From the NCBI GenBank assembly GCA_015231175.1, contig JADGBZ010000001.1, forward strand, positions 18,407 to 82,406: a stretch of 64,000 bases of DNA, read 5' to 3'. The first letter of the stretch is position 1; every line of letters starts with the position of its first letter. The notes beneath the pieces are model-generated. The model was not told the origin of the DNA, searched no databases, and worked only from the letters and a program-made list of their open reading frames with translations. The stretch comes from Magnetococcales bacterium (GTDB lineage: Bacteria; Pseudomonadota; Magnetococcia; Magnetococcales; DC0425bin3). Below are positions 13,481 to 63,607 of the stretch, piece by piece. Both the position numbers and the translations under genes were made by a program.

Positions 13481-13630
13481 CTGACTATGCCGCACTCTTT
13501 CAAGAAAAGCCCGGGTATAAAAGCCTTTGTCAGGGCTTCGCCCCGAACCCCACCAGGACGCTGTCCTGGACCTGCCAGGGAGCCAGCCCCCTGGACTCCG
13601 ATTCATGCCATCAAATCAGCACGGTTGAGC
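13481..13630 (+). mobile_element. MITE family A, copy 1 (degenerate ends)
   Basis: The core AAAGCCTTTGTCAGGGCTTCGCCCCGAACCCCACCAGGAC...GTCCTGGACCTGCCAGGGAGCCAGCCCCCTGGAC is nearly identical to the other copies. The ends are eroded, so boundaries are approximate. Confidence 0.75.
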
Positions 13631-26991: not shown

Positions 26992-27033
26992 GCAACGATT
27001 CAACACCCTTTCGAGAAAAGCTTTGGCATGTGC
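26992..27033 (+). repeat. Solo left-end fragment of MITE family A
   Basis: GCAACGATTCAACACCCTTTCGAGAAAAGCTTTGGCATG resembles the left ~40 nt of full copies (GCAACCATTCAGCACCCTTTCAAGAAAAGC...). It lies 23 nt upstream of the ispH start. Confidence 0.55.
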
Positions 27034-29403: not shown

Positions 29404-30210
29404 CGAAGAACGTGCACGGGCCAGATTGGAGCGTGAGATCCAGGAGTCCCAACGTCTCTCCCAGGAAGCCCGGCGTCTCTCCCAGGAGGCGGAGGCCCGC
29501 CTGGAGCGTGATCTCCAAGATACCTGGCGAATCCTGCGCGAGAACAGTGCCGAAACGGACCGAAGATTTCAGGAAACCGATAGAAAATTCGTAACTATTC
29601 ATCACCCGCCAACGAATCGGGGTCCAGGGGGCTGGCTCCCTGGCAGGTCCAGGACGGAGTCCTGGTGGGGTTCGGGGCGAAGCCCTGACAAAGGCTTTCA
29701 TGTCCAGGCTGTTTTTGAAAGGGTACTGAATAGTTACGAAAATTCCAGGAAACCAATCTGAAAATCAAAGAAGTTTCCACACAGATCGGCAGGTTGGGTG
29801 GTCGCTGGGGGGAGTTTGTCGAGAGTTTGGTTGCCCCTGCCTGCGAGACCCTGTTTGCGGAACGGGGCATTCCCATCCACAAGGTCAGCCCCCGGATCAA
29901 GGCCCGACTCCCCCCCAACAGGCAAATGGAAATTGATCTCCTGGTGGTGAATACCGACACGGTGGCCGTGGTGGAAGTCAAAAGCAAACTGTCGGTGGAG
30001 GATGTACGGGAACACCTCTCCCGCCTGGCCGAATTCAAGGAATTTTTCCCTGAATACCCCGAGCGACGTGTGCTGGGGGCGGTCGCCGGAACCGTCATCG
30101 AAGAGAATATATGCCGGTATGCCATAAGCGCCGGTCTGTTCGTTATCGTCCACGCCGGTGACACGGTACGTCTGGCCAACGATACAGCGTTTGTGCCCCG
30201 GGTTTGGTGA
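29372..30210 (+). pseudogene. Coiled-coil + PD-(D/E)xK-like protein gene split by a MITE (paralog of 52213..53094)
   Basis: The track shows two pieces (29312..29761 and 29794..30210). Piece 1 ends ...ETDRKF, then reads into the MITE. Piece 2 (GGRWGEFVESLVAPACETLFAERGIPIH...) closely resembles the C-terminal half of the 293-aa paralog. Removing 29591-29745 rejoins ...TDRKF|QETNLKIKEVSTQIGRLGGRWGEF in frame, paralleling ...RKFQETDRQFKETDQKIKEVSTLVGRLGGRWGEF in the paralog. Confidence 0.85.
29591..29737 (-). mobile_element. MITE family A, copy 2 (147 bp, intact)
   Basis: Perfect 11-bp TIR GTAACTATTCA...TGAATAGTTAC. The 8-bp direct repeat GAAAATTC occurs on both sides (29583-29590 and 29738-29745). 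Confidence 0.92.
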
Positions 30211-30336: not shown

Positions 30337-30423
30337 GCCCAGATGGCGGAATTGGTAGACGCGCTAGATTCAGGGTCTAGTGATCGCAAGGTCGTGGAAG
30401 TTCGAGTCTTCTTCTGGGCACCA
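30337..30423 (+). tRNA. tRNA-Leu (anticodon CAG)
   Basis: GCCCAGATGGCGGAATTGGTAGACGCGCTAGATTCAGGGTCTAGTGATCGCAAGGTCGTGGAAGTTCGAGTCTTCTTCTGGGCACCA. 7-bp acceptor stem, anticodon arm CTAGA-TTCAGGG-TCTAG, long variable arm, GTTCGAGTC T-loop, encoded CCA. Confidence 0.93.
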
Positions 30424-30468: not shown

Positions 30469-30477
30469 GTCTCTCCT

Positions 30478-30557
30478 TTGCGCTTGGATATCACCCGGCG
30501 GGGACATTTTTCAGCCATTGCGCTTGGATATCACCCGGCGGGGGCATTTCCCAGCCA
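30478..30557. repeat. 2 x 40-bp tandem direct repeat spanning the cobS 3' end
   Basis: TTGCGCTTGGATATCACCCGGCGGGGACATTTTTCAGCCA (30478-30517) and TTGCGCTTGGATATCACCCGGCGGGGGCATTTCCCAGCCA (30518-30557). The second copy contains the cobS stop codon and last codons. Confidence 0.9.
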
Positions 30558-40403: not shown

Positions 40404-40560
40404 GCAACCATTCAGCACCCTTTCAAGAAAAGCTGGAAAAGCTGAGACATGAAAGCCTTTATCAGGGCTTCGCCTCGAACCCCCACCAGAACTCTGTCCT
40501 GGACCTGCCAGGAAGCCGACTCCCTGGACTCCAACTCGTTGCCGGGTGGCGAACAGCCAC
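40404..40560 (+). mobile_element. MITE family A, copy 3
   Basis: GCAACCATTCAGCACCCTTTCAAGAAAAGC...ATGAAAGCCTTTATCAGGGCTTCGCC...CTGCCAGGAAGCCGACTCCCTGGAC...GGGTGGCGAACAGCCAC. It sits in the only long intergenic gap of the 41711->34013 operon. No clear TSD. Confidence 0.8.
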
Positions 40561-40607: not shown

Positions 40608-41711
40608 TTATGGAAGGTCAGATGGGACGGAATGATCCATGGCTTGACGATATTTCTCCGCATCCCAGTTGGTCAATTCATCCTCCTCTTCGGGAGTGAG
40701 ACAACGGACCCCGAGGGTTGAGGCCAATCGGCGCGTGACCAAGGAGTGGCAGTGCAGCATGGCCTCGGCACCCGGCGAAAGAGCAGGACCGAACAGAACA
40801 CCCTCATTTTCCACCACGCAAAAAGCAGCATTCGCCCATCGCCCCACTCCCTGATCCAGAGGCGTGTCGGCAGGCAAAAGACAGGAGTCCCGCCCCAGGT
40901 AAACCACATGGTCAGGATACAAGGCTGGCCGCAACAGCAGTGCCCTGGCCACGGGGTCAAAGGCCATGGCATGAAGATCCAGGTGATCGGGTACGCGCCA
41001 AAGGGGCAGGGTGGATATCCTCGCATGGAGCCGCTCCCACACCGGAGCAGGTGTTGCACGCAGGGGAAGGGCGAGTCGCCGCTCCACATCCCAAAGCAAG
41101 GACTCGGCGGCTGCACAATTTTCTCCTCCCACCACAAGTCCGTGGTTGCCAAGGAAAAGCACATCCGGTAACCGCTCTTGCCCCGCCAACTGTACAACAA
41201 TTTCCCGGGTCAGAGGCAAACCTGGACGACGGTAAGGAATCCAGGCCCATGCCATGCCCCCCAAAAGATGGGCCAATCGTTGGGGAGCATCGGCCAAAAC
41301 GGCCCAGGCGATGGCATTGACTGAGTGGACATGCAACACCACCGTGTGCGGCAGCAGTGCGTGCATGGAGGTTTCGATGGAAGGTCGCAAGGAAGAGGAC
41401 TCTGCCATCTGGCCCCCAAACGTGTCGAGTCTGTTCTCGGCGATAACTTGTCGCACCTCATCCAAAAAAAGAGGAACAAATACCTGTGCATCCTCAGCCC
41501 GAGAAAGCCAGGTTCCGGACCCTTTAACCCACAAGATCCCCTCCTGCTTGAAGGAGGTGTTTCCGCCTCCCCCCTGAATCAAGTTGATGTCCTGCCCTAT
41601 CCTGCCGGAGAGGTGATAGAAGGTCTTTGGGGGGCAGGAGATCGACATGGCCAAGGAGATCCTGTCAAGTATGGGCGGTGCCATCCTGGATTGGTCAGTC
41701 CACTGCGGCAT
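40608..41711 (-). CDS. Class II aldolase/adducin-domain protein (long form, like the N-domain of bifunctional aldolase/SDR enzymes)
   Basis: QGGGGNTSFKQEGILWVKGSGTWL and SIETSMHALLPHTVVLHVHSVNAIAW, followed by LGNHGLVVGG. Confidence 0.7.
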   Translation of the reverse strand: MPQWTDQSRMAPPILDRISLAMSISCPPKTFYHLSGRIGQDINLIQGGGGNTSFKQEGILWVKGSGTWLSRAEDAQVFVPLFLDEVRQVIAENRLDTFGGQMAESSSLRPSIETSMHALLPHTVVLHVHSVNAIAWAVLADAPQRLAHLLGGMAWAWIPYRRPGLPLTREIVVQLAGQERLPDVLFLGNHGLVVGGENCAAAESLLWDVERRLALPLRATPAPVWERLHARISTLPLWRVPDHLDLHAMAFDPVARALLLRPALYPDHVVYLGRDSCLLPADTPLDQGVGRWANAAFCVVENEGVLFGPALSPGAEAMLHCHSLVTRRLASTLGVRCLTPEEEDELTNWDAEKYRQAMDHSVPSDLP

Positions 41712-41889
41712 TCAAGCACCAAACAACCCTCCCGTCAAAGCAGAAACAAACCTGCTGGCCCCTACTATCATCGAGGATGGCCACCCAACTCGACCATCGT
41801 CGAGCCAAATCGGTTGCTCCTGCGCCACCCCATACCCTGCCGGTTACGCGCCCAGAACGTTGCCCTCAGCCCCTTGAAGCTGTAGATTC

Positions 41890-43588
41890 GTAGTCGTTCA
41901 GAGACCCCTGGACCTGAAAGCCCAATGATGATTTGATGGGGGCGATGTCGCAACAGATTGCAAGGTTCACTCCATGAAGCTTACTGACCACGATTTGCTC
42001 CAGTTTGATGAGAGATATCTGGCTTCCCTTGAGCCGGGTTCTCTGTTGGCAGTGAGCAAAAAGCTTTTGTCCGATCTCAAGGAATCTCGTGAGCGTTTAA
42101 ACCAGACGCCCGACAACAGTTCCCGCCCCCCCAGTAGCCGTTCCCCTTACCTTGGGATTCCAGAGGAAGGGGGGGTAGACTCTTCGAATGAGCATAACGA
42201 AGATGTCACGAACTCTTCGGTTGAGAAGGGAAAATCGGAAAAAGAAGACGACGATCACAGAGATGGTAATGGTTCTGGTGGTTCCGACAGCACAGGGAAA
42301 TCACGCTTTAAAAAGCAGAAGCGCAAAGCGGGAAAACAGGTCGGCGCTCCTGGCTATGGACGGCAGCAGAAGATTCCGGCTCAGCGGGAGGAGATTCATA
42401 AAGCGGACAAGTGCGTAGCCTGTGACGCCGTCATTCCTCTGGATATTCCATTTGCGGCCCAGATCGGGTTTTTTGTTTTGGAGTTGATCAGTGGAACTTT
42501 GGAGCATCCTGGTTTGAGACTGGAATGCACCAAGCACCTTTTTGGTGATTCCATTTGTGGATGTGGACATGTCACCCGTACTGGTCCTGGAATTGGGGAG
42601 CGACACGTAGTGGAGGGTCGAAAAGATGCCACCTGTCTGAGTGAATGGCGACTGATTGGCCCCATGCTGGCGGCATTCATCGTGGCCCTTAACCTGCGCA
42701 TGAGACTGTCGCGGCCCCGGATCCGGGAATTTTTGATGGATTGGTTCAGCCTGGAACTGAGCGCCGGGACCATCGACAAGTGTATCCGCAAAGCCGGTTT
42801 GGCGGTGAATCCGATTTATCAAGATGAACTGATTGACGAGGCTCGCCAATCTGGCTTGATCAACGTGGACGAGACCCCATGGAAGGAAAAGGGGGTTGCC
42901 CGATGGTTGTGGGTATTCGTGACAGCCAACACGGTCTTGTTTTTTGTGGGTCGTCGCACCCAGCAGGTTGTCTTGGACATTCTGACCGAGGCCTATGCGG
43001 GCTGGCTGATGAGTGACGGACTCATGAACTATCGGATCTTTTCGAGACGGCTCCGCTGCTTGGCCCACTTGATCCGAAAGGCGCGAGGGTTGGCTGAGAG
43101 TCTTGATGCAGAGACCAAGCTGTTCGGCGACAGGACATTGGAAGTCCTGGAGTTCGTCGTTGGTCAAGTCCGAGACGGACCTGATCGGACCATCTTTCAG
43201 CCGATACTGTCAGATTTCAAATGGCTCTGCGAATGGCATAGGGCGGAAACGCCAGAGGGAAAGCTGCGCAGCCTTGCCGTTGAGTTTCTCAACGACTGGG
43301 ATGTGATTTGGATGACTCTGGAACATCCAGATTTGCCGTTGACCAACAACGAGGCGGAACGCGCCCTGCGCCACTGGGTCATTGCCCGCTTGATCAGCCA
43401 TGGGACTCGCACTGCTGAAGGGAGTCGGGTCTTTACCGTATTGGCCAGTGTGATCGAAACCTGCCGGAGGCGGAAAGTATCTCCTTGGACCTATCTGGCG
43501 ACGGTTATTGCAGAACGTAAAAAGGGCAACCCCTCACCAGCTTTGCCCGTTCCGATGGTGGTTTAAGGTGGGGTCTCTGAACGGTTAC
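41890..43588 (+). mobile_element. IS66-family insertion sequence, single-ORF type (1699 bp)
   Basis: IRs GTAGTCGTTCAGAGACCCC / GGGGTCTCTGAACGGTTAC (17/19). The 8-bp flanks GTAGATTC and GTAGACTC match 7/8. Confidence 0.88.
41974..43566 (+). CDS. IS66-family DDE transposase
   Basis: 530 aa: LNQTPDNSSRPPSS, CVACDAV / CGCGH zinc-finger-like pairs, NVDETPW, LMSDGLMNY, CLAHLIRKA, LTNNEAERALRHWV. Confidence 0.9.
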   Translation: MKLTDHDLLQFDERYLASLEPGSLLAVSKKLLSDLKESRERLNQTPDNSSRPPSSRSPYLGIPEEGGVDSSNEHNEDVTNSSVEKGKSEKEDDDHRDGNGSGGSDSTGKSRFKKQKRKAGKQVGAPGYGRQQKIPAQREEIHKADKCVACDAVIPLDIPFAAQIGFFVLELISGTLEHPGLRLECTKHLFGDSICGCGHVTRTGPGIGERHVVEGRKDATCLSEWRLIGPMLAAFIVALNLRMRLSRPRIREFLMDWFSLELSAGTIDKCIRKAGLAVNPIYQDELIDEARQSGLINVDETPWKEKGVARWLWVFVTANTVLFFVGRRTQQVVLDILTEAYAGWLMSDGLMNYRIFSRRLRCLAHLIRKARGLAESLDAETKLFGDRTLEVLEFVVGQVRDGPDRTIFQPILSDFKWLCEWHRAETPEGKLRSLAVEFLNDWDVIWMTLEHPDLPLTNNEAERALRHWVIARLISHGTRTAEGSRVFTVLASVIETCRRRKVSPWTYLATVIAERKKGNPSPALPVPMVV

Positions 43589-43679
43589 GTAGACTCGGCC
43601 TGTTGGTTGATATGCGCCAGATGCGTTGGCAAGGGTTCACCATCATCAACTTCTGCGCAAGAGTCGGGCGGCTAAAAAA

Positions 43680-45389
43680 ATGACGATGAATATTCTTGTT
43701 AATTTGGTATTTATTGCTGCAATATGTTTCACTTCTGTTGCTGTTGGCGCCTTTATACTATTGCGCACATTTCAAATTTCATCCAACTCAGCATTTTTGT
43801 TGGGAGGCGGTTATTTTGTCGGCATGAGTGTTTTTATGTCTGCGCTGCGCATCATAACATCCTTCACCCACAATCTTAAATCAGGGGCAATTTTCTCACT
43901 CTGCCTTCTGTTTGTATTAACACTACCAAACTTCAAACATGTAAAATACCTGTTCATGCGTGCTGTTGATTTTAAACTCCGTGCAATTCTTGCAACCATA
44001 TGTTTCTTGATTTTCTTGTATGTTTTTTTGATAGGTCTTTGGTTCGACCAGACTGGCTTCCACTGGAGCGGATCCCTGCATGCAGACCGATATGCTGCCA
44101 TATCCGATCTGTTTGCTTTACTCAACGACATCCCTGTCATCAACCAAAACTCGGGACAAGCCATTCTTTCTGCGATCCCCTCCGTATTCGGATATGCACT
44201 CCCCAATTTTTCCCTGAACATGTACTTGTTCGTCTCCGTGGTTGCCATAGCTGTTTTATTTTTCGGTTTATTGAGGGTTTATGGCGCCTCGCGTAAACTG
44301 GCCGTCATGGGCTCATCGATTGTCATGCTCGGCAATTGCACTCTCTCTTTGAGCCATGTTTTGATACTTGATTCGGGAAGTCCCTGGCTTTTTGTCGGTT
44401 ATTTTGATTCCTTGGAAGCCATAGCGACTGCCCTCATTTTCATTGTCGCCGCATCAGACCCTCGTTCGGCTCTGAATGGTCGGCCGTTGCGATGGAATAC
44501 AGACGTATGGCCCCTTCTACTGCCGTTTTGTTTTGGCATCTCCTCCCATCAGGTTGGCCCGCAAAATCTCTTGATTCTACTGCCTATTCTTGGCCTGTGG
44601 TTCATTTTGTCGTTCTGGAAGAGGTTTCCTCTGCGTCTCTCTTTGGGACGTGTCGTTCTCCCATTGATCGTTGGTAGCTCTATCGGATTTTTTCATGGAG
44701 GCATGACAACACCAAGAACATTTCACACCGACCTGTCGAAATATAAAAACGAAGGAACACAAAAATTAATGAGCATGAAAAGTCACAGCAGTTCGATCTT
44801 ATTGTATCCAGTCATGCCTTACCGATTTTTTGATGGCGCAGGCTGGAGGGCGGGCAAGGCAAAATACCTCTTGAATAAGTTTGATGTAGATTATTTTATC
44901 AAAACATCCAAAAACCCTCGTTCTGCACAAGTAATTCTATGGAGCCTTGAAGAGGAGATTTGGACCGCAGCACGCATCATGTTTTTTCCTCTCCTGGGAA
45001 TCACTTTGTTTTGGGTGCATCTCAGAAGGAGATACTTTGATCAATCTGCCAAAAAATTAAATAGCCCTGAAACTTTCACTGACAGAACGTTCCTGTTGCA
45101 TCTATTTTTTGCTGGCATAGCCTCCATTTCTCTGTGTCTTGGATTTCTTGTTTCGTTCAGCGTCGCGATCTTTGGCTACAAATGGGAACTGTCCCGCTTT
45201 TCCATGCTTGGCAACACAATGGGTATGCTTATTCTTATTTTAGCTGTTGATGCGCATCTATCTCACTTGACAGATGCGTCAAAAAACAGAATTTTTGCCT
45301 TCCTTTGTTTTTTAACCATGTTTGGTCCGCTGCTGAACAACACACTCCTTTCCTTAGGCAATTTATCTCTCCTGCTCGCACGATTTTAA
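43680..45389 (+). CDS. Polytopic integral membrane protein of unknown function (AT-richer than its surroundings)
   Basis: About 570 aa with about 14 hydrophobic helices and no motif recognised. Start trimmed to ATG 43680 (MTMNILVNLVF...). The region is visibly more AT-rich than its neighbours; I did not compute this. Confidence 0.6.
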   Translation: MTMNILVNLVFIAAICFTSVAVGAFILLRTFQISSNSAFLLGGGYFVGMSVFMSALRIITSFTHNLKSGAIFSLCLLFVLTLPNFKHVKYLFMRAVDFKLRAILATICFLIFLYVFLIGLWFDQTGFHWSGSLHADRYAAISDLFALLNDIPVINQNSGQAILSAIPSVFGYALPNFSLNMYLFVSVVAIAVLFFGLLRVYGASRKLAVMGSSIVMLGNCTLSLSHVLILDSGSPWLFVGYFDSLEAIATALIFIVAASDPRSALNGRPLRWNTDVWPLLLPFCFGISSHQVGPQNLLILLPILGLWFILSFWKRFPLRLSLGRVVLPLIVGSSIGFFHGGMTTPRTFHTDLSKYKNEGTQKLMSMKSHSSSILLYPVMPYRFFDGAGWRAGKAKYLLNKFDVDYFIKTSKNPRSAQVILWSLEEEIWTAARIMFFPLLGITLFWVHLRRRYFDQSAKKLNSPETFTDRTFLLHLFFAGIASISLCLGFLVSFSVAIFGYKWELSRFSMLGNTMGMLILILAVDAHLSHLTDASKNRIFAFLCFLTMFGPLLNNTLLSLGNLSLLLARF

Positions 45390-45504
45390 AGCACGGCCTT
45401 GATCAAGGCGATGATCATCGCAAGACCTACTGCCATCGCTGGCGTGCAGGCCGGCCACCTTTCCAGTCCATGGATATGCCAAATCCGAACTGGCCGGCAA
45501 AAGC

Positions 45505-45665
45505 GTAACCATTCGGCACCCTCTGCAAGAAAGGCTTGGATATGAAGGCCTCTGTCAGGGCTTCGTCCCGAACCCCACCAGGGCGTTGCCCTGGACCTGC
45601 CAGGGAGCCAGCCTCCTGGACCCCGATGCAAAAGGCGATCACGGCATCGGGTGTACCCATTGCCA
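45505..45665 (+). mobile_element. MITE family A, copy 4 (right end eroded, boundary uncertain)
   Basis: GTAACCATTCGGCACCCTCTGCAAGAAAGGCTTGGATATGAAGGCCTCTGTCAGGGCTTCGTCCCGAACCCCACCAGGGC...CTGCCAGGGAGCCAGCCTCCTGGACCCCGAT. Similarity decays after 45627. Confidence 0.7.
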
Positions 45666-45787
45666 ATGCAATGTCCCGTTGACGCGGGGCGCATCTTGAA
45701 CCAGATCGGGAAACGCTCTACACTGCGACGCAGGGGGAGGTTCGTGTCCGAGCGTTTGTGGCTCGGCATGCATGAGCCACCCCGGTT

Positions 45788-46185
<398 letters not shown>

Positions 46186-46339
46186 CTCCCCTCATGGCAT
46201 GGAAAGTTTGAGCAGTTGCCGATTGCCCTGAAATCGTTGCGGAAGAGGTTGAAAATTTGGGGCGGTTCAATATACCCTTTCGCTTTTATCTTCTGATCGG
46301 GTTGGGTGCGGAGCCATGGCAAGGGAGTAGAGCAAGGAG

Positions 46340-48331: not shown

Positions 48332-48480
48332 GTAACTGTTCAACACCCTCTCAAAGAAAGCCTTGACATGAAAACTTTTGTCATAGCTTCACCCCGAACC
48401 CCACCAGGACACCGTCTTAGGCCCTGCCAGGGAGCCAGCCACCTGGACCCCAATGCGTTACCAGGCGCCGAACAGTCGGC
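48332..48480 (+). mobile_element. MITE family A, copy 5
   Basis: GTAACTGTTCAACACCCTCTCAAAGAAAGCCTTGACATGAAAACTTTTGTCATAGCTTCACCCCGAACCCCACCAGGAC...CTGCCAGGGAGCCAGCCACCTGGACCCC...GCCGAACAGTCGGC. It abuts the stop codon of the convergent AMMECR1 gene. Confidence 0.8.
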
Positions 48481-49170: not shown

Positions 49171-49318
49171 GTATTTGTTCAGCACCCGACAACGCATTGG
49201 AGTCCAGGGGGCTGGCTCCCTGGCAGGGCCTTGGACGGTGTCCTGGCAGGGTTCGGGGCGAAGCCCTGACAAAGTCTTTCATATCCAGGCTTTTCTTGAA
49301 GGGGTGGTGAATAGTGAT
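49171..49318 (-). mobile_element. MITE family A, copy 6
   Basis: GTATTTGTTCAGCACCCGACAACGCATTGGAGTCCAGGGGGCTGGCTCCCTGGCAGG...GGGTTCGGGGCGAAGCCCTGACAAAGTCTTTCATATCCAGGCTTTTCTTGAAGGGGTGGTGAATAGTGAT. Its right end overlaps the annotated start of the SBP gene. Confidence 0.8.
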
Positions 49319-52216: not shown

Positions 52217-53094
52217 CGAAAGGACTCAACATGTCTCAGGCTTTGACGATCGACGACATCTGGAATTTGTTTCAGGAAACCAATCATGTGCTTCAGGAGT
52301 CGATTCAGGAGTCACGGGCCTCGTCCCGAGAGTTAAGGATCTCCATTCAGGAGACGAATTCCTCACTTCAGGCATCCAAAGAGGCATGGGATCGGCAATT
52401 CCAGGCATCCAAAGAGGCATGGGATCGGCAATTCCAGGCATCCAAGGAGATATGGGATCAACGCTTCCTGGAGAGCAGGCTGGAGAGTGCCCGATGGGCA
52501 CAGGAAGCCGAAGCCAGGCTGGAACGTGACCTTCAGGAAACCAGGCGGGTCATGCAGGAGAGCAGAGCCGAGACAGAACGGATATCCCGGGATACAGACC
52601 GGAAATTCCAGGAAACGGACCGACAATTCAAGGAAACAGACCAAAAAATCAAGGAGGTTTCAACCCTGGTCGGCAGACTGGGTGGTCGCTGGGGAGAGTT
52701 TGTGGAAGGTATGGTGGCGCCAGCCTGTGAAACCCTCTTCGCCGAGAGGGGCTTTCCCATCCACCGGGTCAGTCCCAGAATCAAGGCCAAACTGCCCAAC
52801 AATCGCCACATGGAGATCGACCTGTTGGTCGTGAACACAGACATGGTGGCCCTGGTGGAGGTCAAGAGCAAGCCGACCCACGAGGACGTACAGGGGCATT
52901 TGTCGCGTTTGGCTGAATTCAAGGAATTTTTTCCCGAGTATGCACATCGGCGCGTACTGGGGGCCGTTGCCGGCATCGTGATCGAAGAAAACGTCAGCCG
53001 CTACGCCATGAACGCTGGACTGTTCGTCCTCGTCCAGTCAGGTGACACCATGCTGTTGGCCAACACGGCCACTTTCACTCCCCTGGTTTGGTAA
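52213..53094 (+). CDS. Coiled-coil + PD-(D/E)xK-like (restriction-endonuclease fold) protein, DUF3782-like; intact paralog of the pseudogene at 29372..30210
   Basis: The N-terminal half is heptad-rich with three QASKE(A/I)WD(R/Q)(Q/R)F repeats. The C-terminal half carries ...HMEIDLLVVN...VALVEVKSK... (D...E-x-K spacing typical of PD-(D/E)xK nucleases). The ATG overlaps the permease stop (ATGA). The family name is from memory and has not been searched. Confidence 0.6.
   Translation: MTKGLNMSQALTIDDIWNLFQETNHVLQESIQESRASSRELRISIQETNSSLQASKEAWDRQFQASKEAWDRQFQASKEIWDQRFLESRLESARWAQEAEARLERDLQETRRVMQESRAETERISRDTDRKFQETDRQFKETDQKIKEVSTLVGRLGGRWGEFVEGMVAPACETLFAERGFPIHRVSPRIKAKLPNNRHMEIDLLVVNTDMVALVEVKSKPTHEDVQGHLSRLAEFKEFFPEYAHRRVLGAVAGIVIEENVSRYAMNAGLFVLVQSGDTMLLANTATFTPLVW
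52369..52467 (+). repeat. 3 x 33-bp in-frame tandem repeat
   Basis: CAGGCATCCAAAGAGGCATGGGATCGGCAATTC occurs twice perfectly (52369-52401 and 52402-52434), plus a diverged third copy (52435-52467). Confidence 0.9.
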
Positions 53095-53101
53095 AATCCG
53101 C

Positions 53102-53135
53102 ACAACGATTCAGCACCCTCGCACGAAAGATCAGG
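53102..53135 (+). repeat. Solo left-end fragment of MITE family A
   Basis: ACAACGATTCAGCACCCTCGCACGAAAGATCAGG compared with the consensus GTAACCATTCAGCACCCTTTCAAGAAAAGCCTGG. No similarity beyond this. It is followed by a hairpin, GATCAGGCAGCC-TTCG-GCTGATC. Confidence 0.5.
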
Positions 53136-54791: not shown

Positions 54792-56356
54792 GTTCTCCGC
54801 CAGAAATTCAGTTGGTTTTTGGACACTTCGACATCGCTGAAAGGCAATACCCGTCCTGCCACGCTTTGCCCGGTTTCATGGCCCTTGCCTGCCAATAAAA
54901 CAGTATCGCCCGCCGATGCCAGGGTGAAGGCATGTGCGATGGCCATGGCTCGATCACCCATCTCCAGGCAGGTGTGTTTTCCCCCGATTTCAGCGATGCC
55001 TGTCAAAATAGCCTGTCGAATGACGGCAGGATCTTCGTTGCGGGGGTTGTCATCGGTTACAATGGTCATATCGGCCAGACAGGCAGCGACACGGCCCATC
55101 ATCGGGCGTTTCAGCTTGTCTCGATCGCCACCGCAACCAAACAGGAGGAGCAAACGCCCCGGGGTGATGCGCCGGGCGGTCCGCAACAGGCGTTCCAGGG
55201 CATCCGGTGTATGGGCAAAGTCGACCACAACAGCAAAAGGTTGACCACCATCAATCCTTTGCATGCGACCTGGGGGAGGGGTAAACCGGGCCAGACCTGT
55301 CTGGATCAGAGCGGGAGAGATGGATAGTTGCCAGGCAATCGCAGCCGCAGCCAAGGCATTGGTGACATTGAAATCACCCGGCACGGGCAGATCGACAGTG
55401 ACTTCACCCGCAGGCGTGACCATCCGGAAGCGGGAACCTTGCCAGGTCATGGCCACGTCACGGGCCTGAAAATCTCCAGTTTCACCCATCTCCCCGGCAA
55501 ATGTGGCCACCGGTATGTCACCCCTCCGGCATTGTTCCAACAAGACGGGTGCGCGTGGGTCATGCATGTTGATCACGCTGCGCGCACACTGGCCAGCCTG
55601 GAACAGGCGCGATTTGGCCGTAAAATAGGCTTCCTCGGTTCCATGGTAGTCCAGATGGTCGCGGGTGAGATTTAAAAAAGCCCCCACATCAAAAAAGATA
55701 CTGGCCGTGCGGGATTGATCCAAGGCATGCGAAGAGACCTCCATGACCATGGCCGTGCAACCGGAGCCCTGCATCTCTCCCAGCAAAGATTGCAGGGTAA
55801 TGGGATCGGGTGTGGTCATGGAGGTGGCCTGTTGCACTCCTGGCCAACGATTTCCTGTGGTTCCCATGACGCCAACCCGCTTGCCGCTCACGGACAGAAT
55901 GGATTCCACCATGGCCGCCACGGTCGTCTTGCCGTTGGTTCCCGTGATCCCGACGGTTTGCATCGTGCGGGCAGGGTGACCGTAAAAGGCTGCGGCCAGC
56001 CACGACAACCCCCGACGCGGCTCGGGGTGAATGAACCGGCAGACCCGATTGGCGACAGCCGGATCAGGGGCCCAGCTCCCATCATCCAGAATGGCTGCGG
56101 CTCCCCGTTCCAGGGCCTGGTCGATGAAGAGATGCCCATCAGCATGTCTACCCGAGAGGGCAGCAAAGAGAAAACCAGGCGCGACCTGCCGGGAATCGGC
56201 TGTCAATCCCGACAAGGGAACATTCGGCCCCGTGCAGACCAGATCGACACAATCTTGCGCCAGAAGATAAGAACCACACCCGTGCAAACCGGCAGATTGG
56301 TGTATGGCACAAGCCTCGTTCCCGGCAGATTGGCGTATGGCACAAGCCTCGTTCAT
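54788..56356 (-). CDS. murE: UDP-N-acetylmuramoyl-L-alanyl-D-glutamate--2,6-diaminopimelate ligase
   Basis: SRQVAPGFLFAALSG, GITGTNGKTT, HLDYHGT, and the DNPR motif (TDDNPRNEDP). Start trimmed to ATG 56356, overlapping the ftsI stop (ATGA). The N-terminus carries a duplicated 11-aa unit. Confidence 0.9.
   Translation of the reverse strand: MNEACAIRQSAGNEACAIHQSAGLHGCGSYLLAQDCVDLVCTGPNVPLSGLTADSRQVAPGFLFAALSGRHADGHLFIDQALERGAAAILDDGSWAPDPAVANRVCRFIHPEPRRGLSWLAAAFYGHPARTMQTVGITGTNGKTTVAAMVESILSVSGKRVGVMGTTGNRWPGVQQATSMTTPDPITLQSLLGEMQGSGCTAMVMEVSSHALDQSRTASIFFDVGAFLNLTRDHLDYHGTEEAYFTAKSRLFQAGQCARSVINMHDPRAPVLLEQCRRGDIPVATFAGEMGETGDFQARDVAMTWQGSRFRMVTPAGEVTVDLPVPGDFNVTNALAAAAIAWQLSISPALIQTGLARFTPPPGRMQRIDGGQPFAVVVDFAHTPDALERLLRTARRITPGRLLLLFGCGGDRDKLKRPMMGRVAACLADMTIVTDDNPRNEDPAVIRQAILTGIAEIGGKHTCLEMGDRAMAIAHAFTLASAGDTVLLAGKGHETGQSVAGRVLPFSDVEVSKNQLNFWRRT
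56289..56354. repeat. 2 x 33-bp tandem duplication at the ftsI/murE junction
   Basis: CCGGCAGATTGGTGTATGGCACAAGCCTCGTTC (56289-56321) and CCGGCAGATTGGCGTATGGCACAAGCCTCGTTC (56322-56354), with one mismatch. It encodes NEACAI(R/H)QSAG twice in MurE. Confidence 0.9.
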
Positions 56357-59945: not shown

Positions 59946-59970
59946 GTAATCGTTCAGAGACCCCCGGACT
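59946..59970 (+). repeat. Orphan IS66-type terminal repeat (25 nt)
   Basis: GTAATCGTTCAGAGACCCCCGGACT versus the left end of the IS at 41890, GTAGTCGTTCAGAGACCCCTGGACC (22/25). It is directly followed by the short MITE. Confidence 0.7.
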
Positions 59971-60054
59971 GTAACCGTTCAGCGCCCCTTCCAGAAAAAT
60001 CTGGACATGAAAGCCTTTGTCAGGGCTTTTCTGGAAGGGGCGCTGAACGGTTAC
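59971..60054. mobile_element. MITE family A, short 84-bp derivative with perfect 28-bp TIRs
   Basis: GTAACCGTTCAGCGCCCCTTCCAGAAAA - ATCTGGACATGAAAGCCTTTGTCAGGGC - TTTTCTGGAAGGGGCGCTGAACGGTTAC. Confidence 0.85.
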
Positions 60055-63459: not shown

Positions 63460-63607
63460 GTGACTCTTCACCACCATTGCAAAAAAAGCGTGGACATGAA
63501 GACCTTTGTCGGGGCTTCGCCCCGAACCCCACCAGGACTCTGTCCAAGACCCTGCCAGGGAGCCACCCCCCGAGACCTCAACTCGTGGTCGGGTGGTGAA
63601 CAGTTAC
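63460..63607 (+). mobile_element. MITE family A, copy 8 (148 bp)
   Basis: GTGACTCTTCACCACC...GGACATGAAGACCTTTGTCGGGGCTTCGCCCCGAACCCCACCAGGAC...GGGTGGTGAACAGTTAC. The flanks CCAAAAAG (63452-63459) and CCGAAAAG (63608-63615) form a 7/8 8-bp TSD. Confidence 0.85.

Follow-up and report, generated by a model that had tools for sequence, protein, structure and literature searches.

Is the 1699-bp unit at positions 41890-43588 of a Magnetococcales chromosome a complete insertion sequence (IS), to which group does it belong, and how is it related to the genes and the small repeats around it? The unit lies within a 64,000-nucleotide stretch (the window) of contig JADGBZ010000001.1 (assembly GCA_015231175.1; positions 18,407 to 82,406 of the forward strand), and all coordinates below are those of the window. 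We conclude with high confidence that it is an insertion sequence of the IS66 family and of the ISBst12-type group, whose members carry a single open reading frame (ORF). It is an ordinary insertion sequence and a new member of a known group.

Boundaries and anatomy of the element

The element ends in two 19-bp terminal inverted repeats that are identical at 17 of 19 positions (Table 1). Both mismatches fall at positions 4-5, where the left repeat (IRL) begins GTAGT and the right repeat (IRR) begins GTAAC. Directly outside the repeats lie 8-bp direct repeats that agree at seven positions, a match with a chance probability of 3.8e-4 for a single fixed octamer pair. When up to three mismatches were allowed, the inverted repeat pattern occurred 5 times in the window as compared to 0.04 expected occurrences. 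The empty site, as reconstructed, reads ...CTTGAAGCTGTAGAYTC|GGCCTGTTGG... The sequence-only reading of this locus had described a 1699-bp unit with these repeats and flanks, and all of them are present in the sequence.

A single gene, encoding a transposase of 530 amino acids, accounts for most of the element. Its ATG is located 84 bp from the left end and is preceded, 7 nt upstream, by the sequence AAGG (41967-41973), while its stop codon lies 3 bp before IRR. The leader upstream of this gene is conserved in two related elements (L001 and L002, described below). The GC content of the IS is 0.537 compared to 0.564 for the window, and no Rfam match was found inside it.

The transposase is full length

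The protein matched two curated profiles of IS66 transposases: Pfam PF03050 (DDE_Tnp_IS66; E = 6.3e-30, 105 bits against a cut-off of 23.1, residues 228-484) and NCBIfam NF033517 (transpos_IS66; 188.7 bits against a cut-off of 180, model positions 3-385 of 387). Weaker Pfam matches were obtained to the IS66 C-terminal family and, at the N-terminus, to DUF6444. The families zf-IS66 (PF13005) and LZ_Tnp_IS66 (PF13007) were not among the Pfam matches at E <= 0.01.

A search of 5.8 billion proteins returned 2833 homologues at E <= 1e-5. Nearly all of the best 120 are 502-571 amino acids long (one has 472), and among the homologues listed the alignments cover 78-100% of the query, with 98-100% in most cases. 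We then aligned 16 sequences, reaching as far as Chloroflexota and Methanosarcinaceae. None of the invariant columns of this alignment, among them D299, D348, and E462, is altered in the query, which has no gaps or truncations and shares its start methionine with its relatives. This full-length alignment, with all of the invariant columns kept, argues that the ORF is intact, neither truncated nor frameshifted. The earlier expectation that it would prove full length when set against family members was borne out with more than 100 homologues, and every motif quoted at that stage for the 530-residue ORF (NSSRPPSS, NVDETPW, SDGLMNY, CLAHLIRKA, and TNNEAERALR) was found. An identical protein at NCBI is named “IS66 family transposase [Magnetococcales bacterium]”.

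D299 lies in VDETPW, D348 in MSDG, and E462 in NNEAER, and these three residues are predicted to form the catalytic triad. Four cysteines (C147, C150, C195, and C197) are likewise invariant in the 16-sequence alignment and make up a zinc-finger-like CxxC...CxC module. The domain order is an N-terminal helical region, an acidic linker (residues 48-129) that is disordered in the AlphaFold model, the zinc-finger-like module, and an RNase-H-like core. In that model (mean pLDDT, the predicted local distance difference test score, 69.8; core 80-90), the core sheet opens with the strand that carries D299; D348 comes directly after a later strand, and an all-helical insertion precedes the helix with E462.

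A search of the PDB by sequence gave nothing below E = 0.5 and thus no IS66 structure. By Foldseek, the best PDB matches of the model were the ISCth4 transposase (E = 1e-7) and Hermes. ISCth4 (PDB 6xg8, 6xgx) has in common with the model a DDE RNase-H-like core and flanking helical domains. It belongs, however, to another family (IS256), with sequence identities of 11-14% and TM-scores of 0.27-0.43 against a model of moderate confidence.

The element has the layout of the ISBst12-type group

In the ISfinder classification, terminal inverted repeats starting with 5'-GTAA are a hallmark of the IS66 family, and elements of the ISBst12 group measure approximately 1.35-1.9 kb. In canonical IS66 elements, tnpC is preceded by the accessory genes tnpA and tnpB (Han et al. 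2001, cited in PMC12898284). The window element shows matches to curated TnpC profiles, a D/D/E triad, GTAA-type repeats, and an 8-bp duplication, all of which are features of the family. Only 84 bp precede the ATG, which leaves no room for tnpA and tnpB, and the element is therefore ISBst12-type and not a member of the IS66 group proper (IS66, IS679). No Pfam family was found on any small ORF inside or upstream of the element. The group is described as having a single ORF, 8-bp direct repeats, and GTAAC... ends, with ISDge4 as an active example (PMC12898284). We placed the window element, with its one ORF in 1699 bp, by means of this published description of the group.

The likeness to ISBst12 of Geobacillus stearothermophilus and ISDge4 of Deinococcus geothermalis includes the single transposase ORF without tnpA or tnpB, the DDE_Tnp_IS66 catalytic domain, and the 8-bp direct repeat. 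The repeat tips are of the same GTAAC...TCAG type (GTAACTGCTCAGCA and GTGACTACTCAGCA in ISDge4; GTAACCGTTCAGAG and GTAGTCGTTCAGAG in the window element), and in both elements the repeats are slightly imperfect (PMC12898284). Compared by description, the window transposase differs in its length (530 versus 449 amino acids in ISDge4) and in its acidic disordered linker and weak DUF6444 match. With canonical IS66 and IS679 it has in common a TnpC-type DDE transposase that passes both PF03050 and NF033517, GTAA-type ends, and the 8-bp duplication. It differs from them in the absence of tnpA and tnpB and of matches to PF13005 and PF13007; the CxxC...CxC module is nevertheless conserved. The sequence-only reading had assigned an intact element to a single-ORF subgroup of the family, and the curated profiles, the full-length alignment, the anatomy, and the relatives described next all back that assignment.

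Relatives with the same ends

The most informative relatives confirm the boundaries. L001, from a Magnetococcales metagenome-assembled genome (MAG), is a 1699-bp element with a transposase 71% identical to that of the window; its repeats are perfect and identical to the window IRR, and they are flanked by a perfect 8/8 duplication (ATCGATCC). L002 is 1698 bp long, and the transposases of these two elements are 71-72% identical to the one described here. With both ends aligned, DNA similarity to L001 and L002 begins and stops exactly at the repeat tips.

Magnetococcus marinus MC-1, whose genome is finished (CP000471, P0007), has five copies of a more distant relative with inverted repeats identical to the window IRR (copies L022-L026). 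The five copies are identical, and four of them have perfect 8-bp duplications. The copy lacking one (L023) adjoins a Y1 (IS200-type) transposase gene. The MC-1 element resembles the window element in its 532-residue transposase (64% identical), its 19-bp repeat GTAACCGTTCAGAGACCCC, its 8-bp duplication, and a stop codon a few bp before IRR. In contrast, it is 1969 bp long with a 347-bp leader, compared to 1699 bp and 84 bp here, and is present in at least five identical copies, compared to one copy seen in the window. An 80-residue ORF annotated in the MC-1 leader was considered as an accessory gene and rejected, as it had no protein-level match in the other fetched loci or the window. Neither homologues of tnpA and tnpB nor room for them were found in the window element or the compared relatives.

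The ends also vary. L007 (70% identical transposase) has GTAGCC tips at both ends and a perfect duplication (CCCAAAAG), and a GTAATC tip occurs in L008 and in a remnant in the window (59946). Judging by these tips, positions 4-5 vary naturally within the clade as purine-pyrimidine (R-Y). We had considered the GTAGTC tip of IRL as a sign of inactivation or decay and rejected this idea because the same variants occur on relatives.

A scan of metagenomes yielded 17 relatives, of which none exceeded 72% identity, and did not turn up an identical copy. Several of the metagenome contigs did not show matching duplications, which we attribute to assembly across multi-copy repeats. The best match among GTDB representatives was 72% identical, and the sole match in a plasmid collection was a 218-bp segment (73%) inside an IS66 transposase gene of Ca. 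Thiodictyon. By sequence identity, then, the element is a new IS, its closest relative found being 72% identical, and the identical copies and perfect duplications described above indicate that relatives with the same ends are mobile. In Magnetococcales, one 19-bp repeat has thus been kept by elements whose transposases share only 64-72% identity.

If it acts as other DDE transposases do, the enzyme would bind the two 19-bp terminal inverted repeats and join the 3' ends of these repeats to a target whose strands are cut 8 bp apart; repair of this stagger would give the 8-bp flanking repeat. The element landed in a former divergent intergenic region of about 261 bp. A copy-and-paste route has been proposed for ISDge4 (PMC12898284). 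For the element studied here, the transposition chemistry is inferred from its family; this copy may still be active, and it may affect neighboring genes.

Relation to a family of miniature elements

The window also contains a family of transposable elements of the miniature inverted-repeat type (MITEs) of approximately 150 bp, represented by eight copies (several incomplete) and two solo ends, along with a palindromic short form of 84 bp (Table 1). All copies lie in intergenic DNA of core chromosomal genes and are 80-89% identical to one another. They end in GTAACyrTTCA and have GC-rich, hairpin-forming interiors.

The IS and the MITEs are alike at both levels of their ends (MITE end GTAACyrTTCAgCACCC...TGGACATGAAAGCC; IS left end GTAGTCGTTCAGAGACCCC-TGGACCTGAAAGCC). 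A 12-nt tip consensus, GTAACYRTTCAG, is common to both, as is a subterminal 14-nt motif, TGGAC-N-TGAAAGCC, which agrees at all 13 specified positions. This motif occurs three times in the window as compared to 0.11 expected, and the two occurrences outside the IS are inside MITEs. L001 and L002 are less MITE-like at this motif. The MITE duplications are likewise 8 bp long, with an 8/8 match for the best-preserved copy, m29, and 7/8 for m63; the short form has no flanking duplication. These features support a common ancestry of the IS and the MITEs and a compatible transposition geometry.

Over the full 19-bp repeat, typical MITE ends match the IS at only about 12 of 19 positions, as m29 (B end) does, compared to 16 of 19 for the 84-bp form. 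The tip is common to relatives down to about 42% transposase identity, and it is similar to the one reported for ISDge4 (PMC12898284). The mutual identity of 80-89% indicates that the MITE copies are old. Because the tip is so widely shared, the full-repeat match is 12/19, and the MITEs are old, this IS copy is a candidate source of their mobilization. The earlier proposal that it was the likely source of the MITE transposase accordingly held in part: it agrees with the 8-bp length of the duplications and with the likeness of the tips and of the subterminal motif, although none of these is specific to this copy.

Table 1. Coordinates of the insertion sequence and of the related repeats in the window
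Feature	Position	Strand	Sequence	Remark
Left target-site duplication, 8 bp	41882-41889		GTAGATTC	7/8 versus 43589-43596
IRL, 19 bp	41890-41908	+	GTAGTCGTTCAGAGACCCC	
Leader, 65 bp	41909-41973	+	contains TGGACCTGAAAGCC at 41909-41922	IRL to start codon
Transposase gene, 530 amino acids	41974-43566	+		IS66-type DDE, TnpC-like
IRR, 19 bp	43570-43588	-	GTAACCGTTCAGAGACCCC (reverse complement)	
Right target-site duplication, 8 bp	43589-43596		GTAGACTC	one transition versus left copy
Solo IRL-like remnant, 25 bp	59946-59970	+	GTAATCGTTCAGAGACCCCCGGACT	0 mismatches to the inverted repeat pattern
MITE m29	29591-29737		ends GTAACTATTCA...; perfect 8-bp duplication GAAAATTC	best preserved; related non-autonomous element, not part of the IS
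Short MITE, 84 bp, palindromic	59971-60054		ends GTAACCGTTCAGCGCCCCT; carries TGGACATGAAAGCC	ends 16/19 versus IS repeat
MITE-like repeats (all)	13484-13604, 29591-29737, 40406-40556, 45505-45627, 48332-48476, 49171-49318, 59971-60054, 63460-63607			
MITE solo ends	26994-27030, 53103-53128			

Traces of other copies

We counted copies of the IS within the 64-kb window, which contains one full copy and one solo remnant. The solo remnant in Table 1 is identical to positions 41890-41914 at 22 of 25 nucleotides and is not followed by any IS sequence. Read as the trace of a second copy, it is evidence that the IS lineage once comprised at least one more copy.

This 25-bp solo end directly abuts the 84-bp short MITE in the same orientation (59946-60054), and no flanking duplication is present on either. 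Both are located shortly upstream of mraW, with which the dcw cluster starts, and the pair could have arisen by a nested insertion followed by a deletion.

Genomic context and promoters

The window represents core chromosome, with mraW-ftsI-murE, purC, ispH, cob genes, a peptide ABC transporter, and a molybdopterin oxidoreductase in addition to the RNA genes for tRNA-Leu (30337-30423) and RNase P. To the left of the IS, a minus-strand operon encodes a class II aldolase, a nucleotidyltransferase, GtrA, GT2, a protein of unknown function, a PRK-type kinase, and a HAD hydrolase; one of the MITEs sits between the first two genes of this glycan-type operon. The left end of the IS is 178 bp from the ATG at 41711 and 241 bp from the start implied by the 346-residue product at NCBI. 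On the other side, 91 bp separate the right end from the ATG at 43680 (83 bp if the flanking repeat is left out of the count).

The right-hand gene (43680-45389) is an orphan with a GC content of 0.435, lower than that of the window and of the IS, as the sequence-only reading had remarked in calling it AT-richer. Its product of 569 amino acids has about 12 hydrophobic segments and no Pfam or NCBIfam match. In the search of 5.8 billion proteins, one homologue besides the protein itself was found, with 24% identity. We speculate that it may be a divergent glycan polymerase or a GT-C-type partner of the GtrA/GT2 operon. The description of the flanks as two accessory envelope loci thus holds for the glycan-type operon on the left and not for the right, where a single orphan gene with about 12 putative transmembrane segments is found. 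A MITE (45505-45627), the RNase P RNA gene rnpB, and speA follow on the 3' side of the membrane gene.

The RNase P RNA is of bacterial class A (45788-46187, plus strand, 310 bits). An overlapping ORF of 225 codons (45386-46063, minus strand) is therefore spurious.

The transposase gene is transcribed towards the membrane gene, and the possibility that the insertion had separated or rewired the neighboring promoters had been raised. We scanned positions 41500-43900 with a promoter threshold of 9 of 12 matches. One promoter-like site was found as compared to 1.3 expected, none lay at the IS ends, and no terminator-like site was found on the plus strand between the transposase stop codon and position 43680. 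These consensus scans thus lent no support to a possible rewiring of promoters by the IS.

When the scan was relaxed, the only candidate was an 8/12 match, TTGCCC-17-TAGATT (41860-41888), below the 9/12 threshold. Its -10 element falls within the left target duplication, and it is directed into the IS. Had the membrane gene once been transcribed from this site, the same promoter would now serve the transposase gene. We discarded it as a promoter because the match is too weak.

A broader proposal unites two of these themes. It holds that an abundant MITE family of ISBst12 type, with about 10 copies in 64 kb (full, partial, or solo-end, all of them intergenic in the core chromosome), has its autonomous partner in the IS lineage and, in addition, that read-out from the transposase gene now drives the otherwise promoter-poor, horizontally acquired orphan gene at 43680. 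We regard the two parts together as a speculative and rather unlikely combination.

Other repeats in the window

Several repeats of other kinds were also observed. Units of 33 nt in tandem, two of them identical, occupy 52369-52467, and 21-nt units of the GAAAC(G/A)GACCG... type occupy 52570-52650; related copies start at 29552 and 29728 (region 29552-29766), next to MITE m29. A 300-nt segment (29737-30036) is 75% identical to 52621-52920. Two tandem duplications were found, one of 40 nt x 2 just downstream of tRNA-Leu (30475-30554) and the other of 33 nt x 2 at the ftsI/murE boundary (56289-56354).

Alternative explanations

Several observations weigh against our reading of the locus. The NF033517 score barely exceeds its cut-off. 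No second full copy was found in the window, and each of two MAG deposits at NCBI (MBF0175277.1 and MBF0321433.1) contains the exact protein a single time. The same site is occupied in both, the right-hand neighbor being the same and transposase and neighbor having consecutive accessions. The element lies inside a 127,019-bp contig, the longest recorded for the identical protein; together with the one protein per deposit, this internal position argues against many identical copies. We sought an empty site by means of the neighboring genes and found none; the left-hand aldolase has its closest relative, other than itself, at 49% identity, and there was no syntenic relative. Since the inverted repeats differ at 2 of 19 positions and the duplication at 1 of 8, the insertion is probably not recent, and current activity of this copy is a matter of inference. 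An alternative explanation is that the element is a fossil, i.e., an old, fixed, and immobile insertion that is structurally complete and whose ORF is still open by chance. The differences between IRL and IRR at positions 4-5 and the mismatch in the duplication would fit this explanation, as would the single full copy, the single exact protein per assembly, and the old activity suggested by the divergence among the related MITEs. Against it, the ORF has no frameshift and keeps all of the invariant columns of the 16-sequence alignment. The IRL variants GTAG and GTAAT are, moreover, found on relatives, including both ends of L007 with its perfect duplication, and ISDge4 transposes with imperfect repeats, GTGAC versus GTAAC (PMC12898284). 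We consider a fossil quite conceivable, although it is not the explanation we favor.

Two further alternatives concern the origin of the locus. The IS and the MITE at 45505-45627 bracket the orphan membrane gene, and it could be speculated that a compound-transposon-like unit, or a small island beside rnpB, brought this gene in. The low GC content of the gene, its one distant homologue, and the order of IS, gene, MITE with related tips, and RNase P RNA are in keeping with such an origin; however, the IS has its own 7/8 duplication directly around it, which points to a simple insertion, MITE m45 lacks the A end, and no duplication was found around 41890-45627. AT-rich divergent membrane genes are also common in glycan loci without transposons. 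This explanation is therefore improbable. Even less credible is a defective derivative of a three-gene IS66 element that lost tnpA and tnpB by deletion. Such a loss might be thought of because both genes are normally present upstream of tnpC in canonical IS66, but the distance from the left end to the ATG is 84 bp, L001 and L002 have the same short-leader layout, and L007, L010, and the MC-1 copies have leaders of about 90-350 bp without a conserved ORF. The 80-residue MC-1 leader ORF has no Pfam family in addition to its lack of protein-level matches, and the small ORFs near the element are without Pfam matches.

Significance

The result provides exact boundaries, repeats, and a target duplication for an unnamed ISBst12-type IS that NCBI has so far labeled only as “IS66 family transposase”, and its value is mainly one of annotation. 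The dense MITE family in this genome may plausibly descend from the lineage of this element. The literature searched yielded no MITE attributed to IS66 or ISBst12, and a documented autonomous/non-autonomous pair in Magnetococcales would, if true, be a modest addition. In magnetotactic Magnetococcales, a possible use of the element is as a genome plasticity marker. It may also offer a test case for the mobilization of MITEs by single-ORF IS66 elements, the mechanism of which is poorly characterized.

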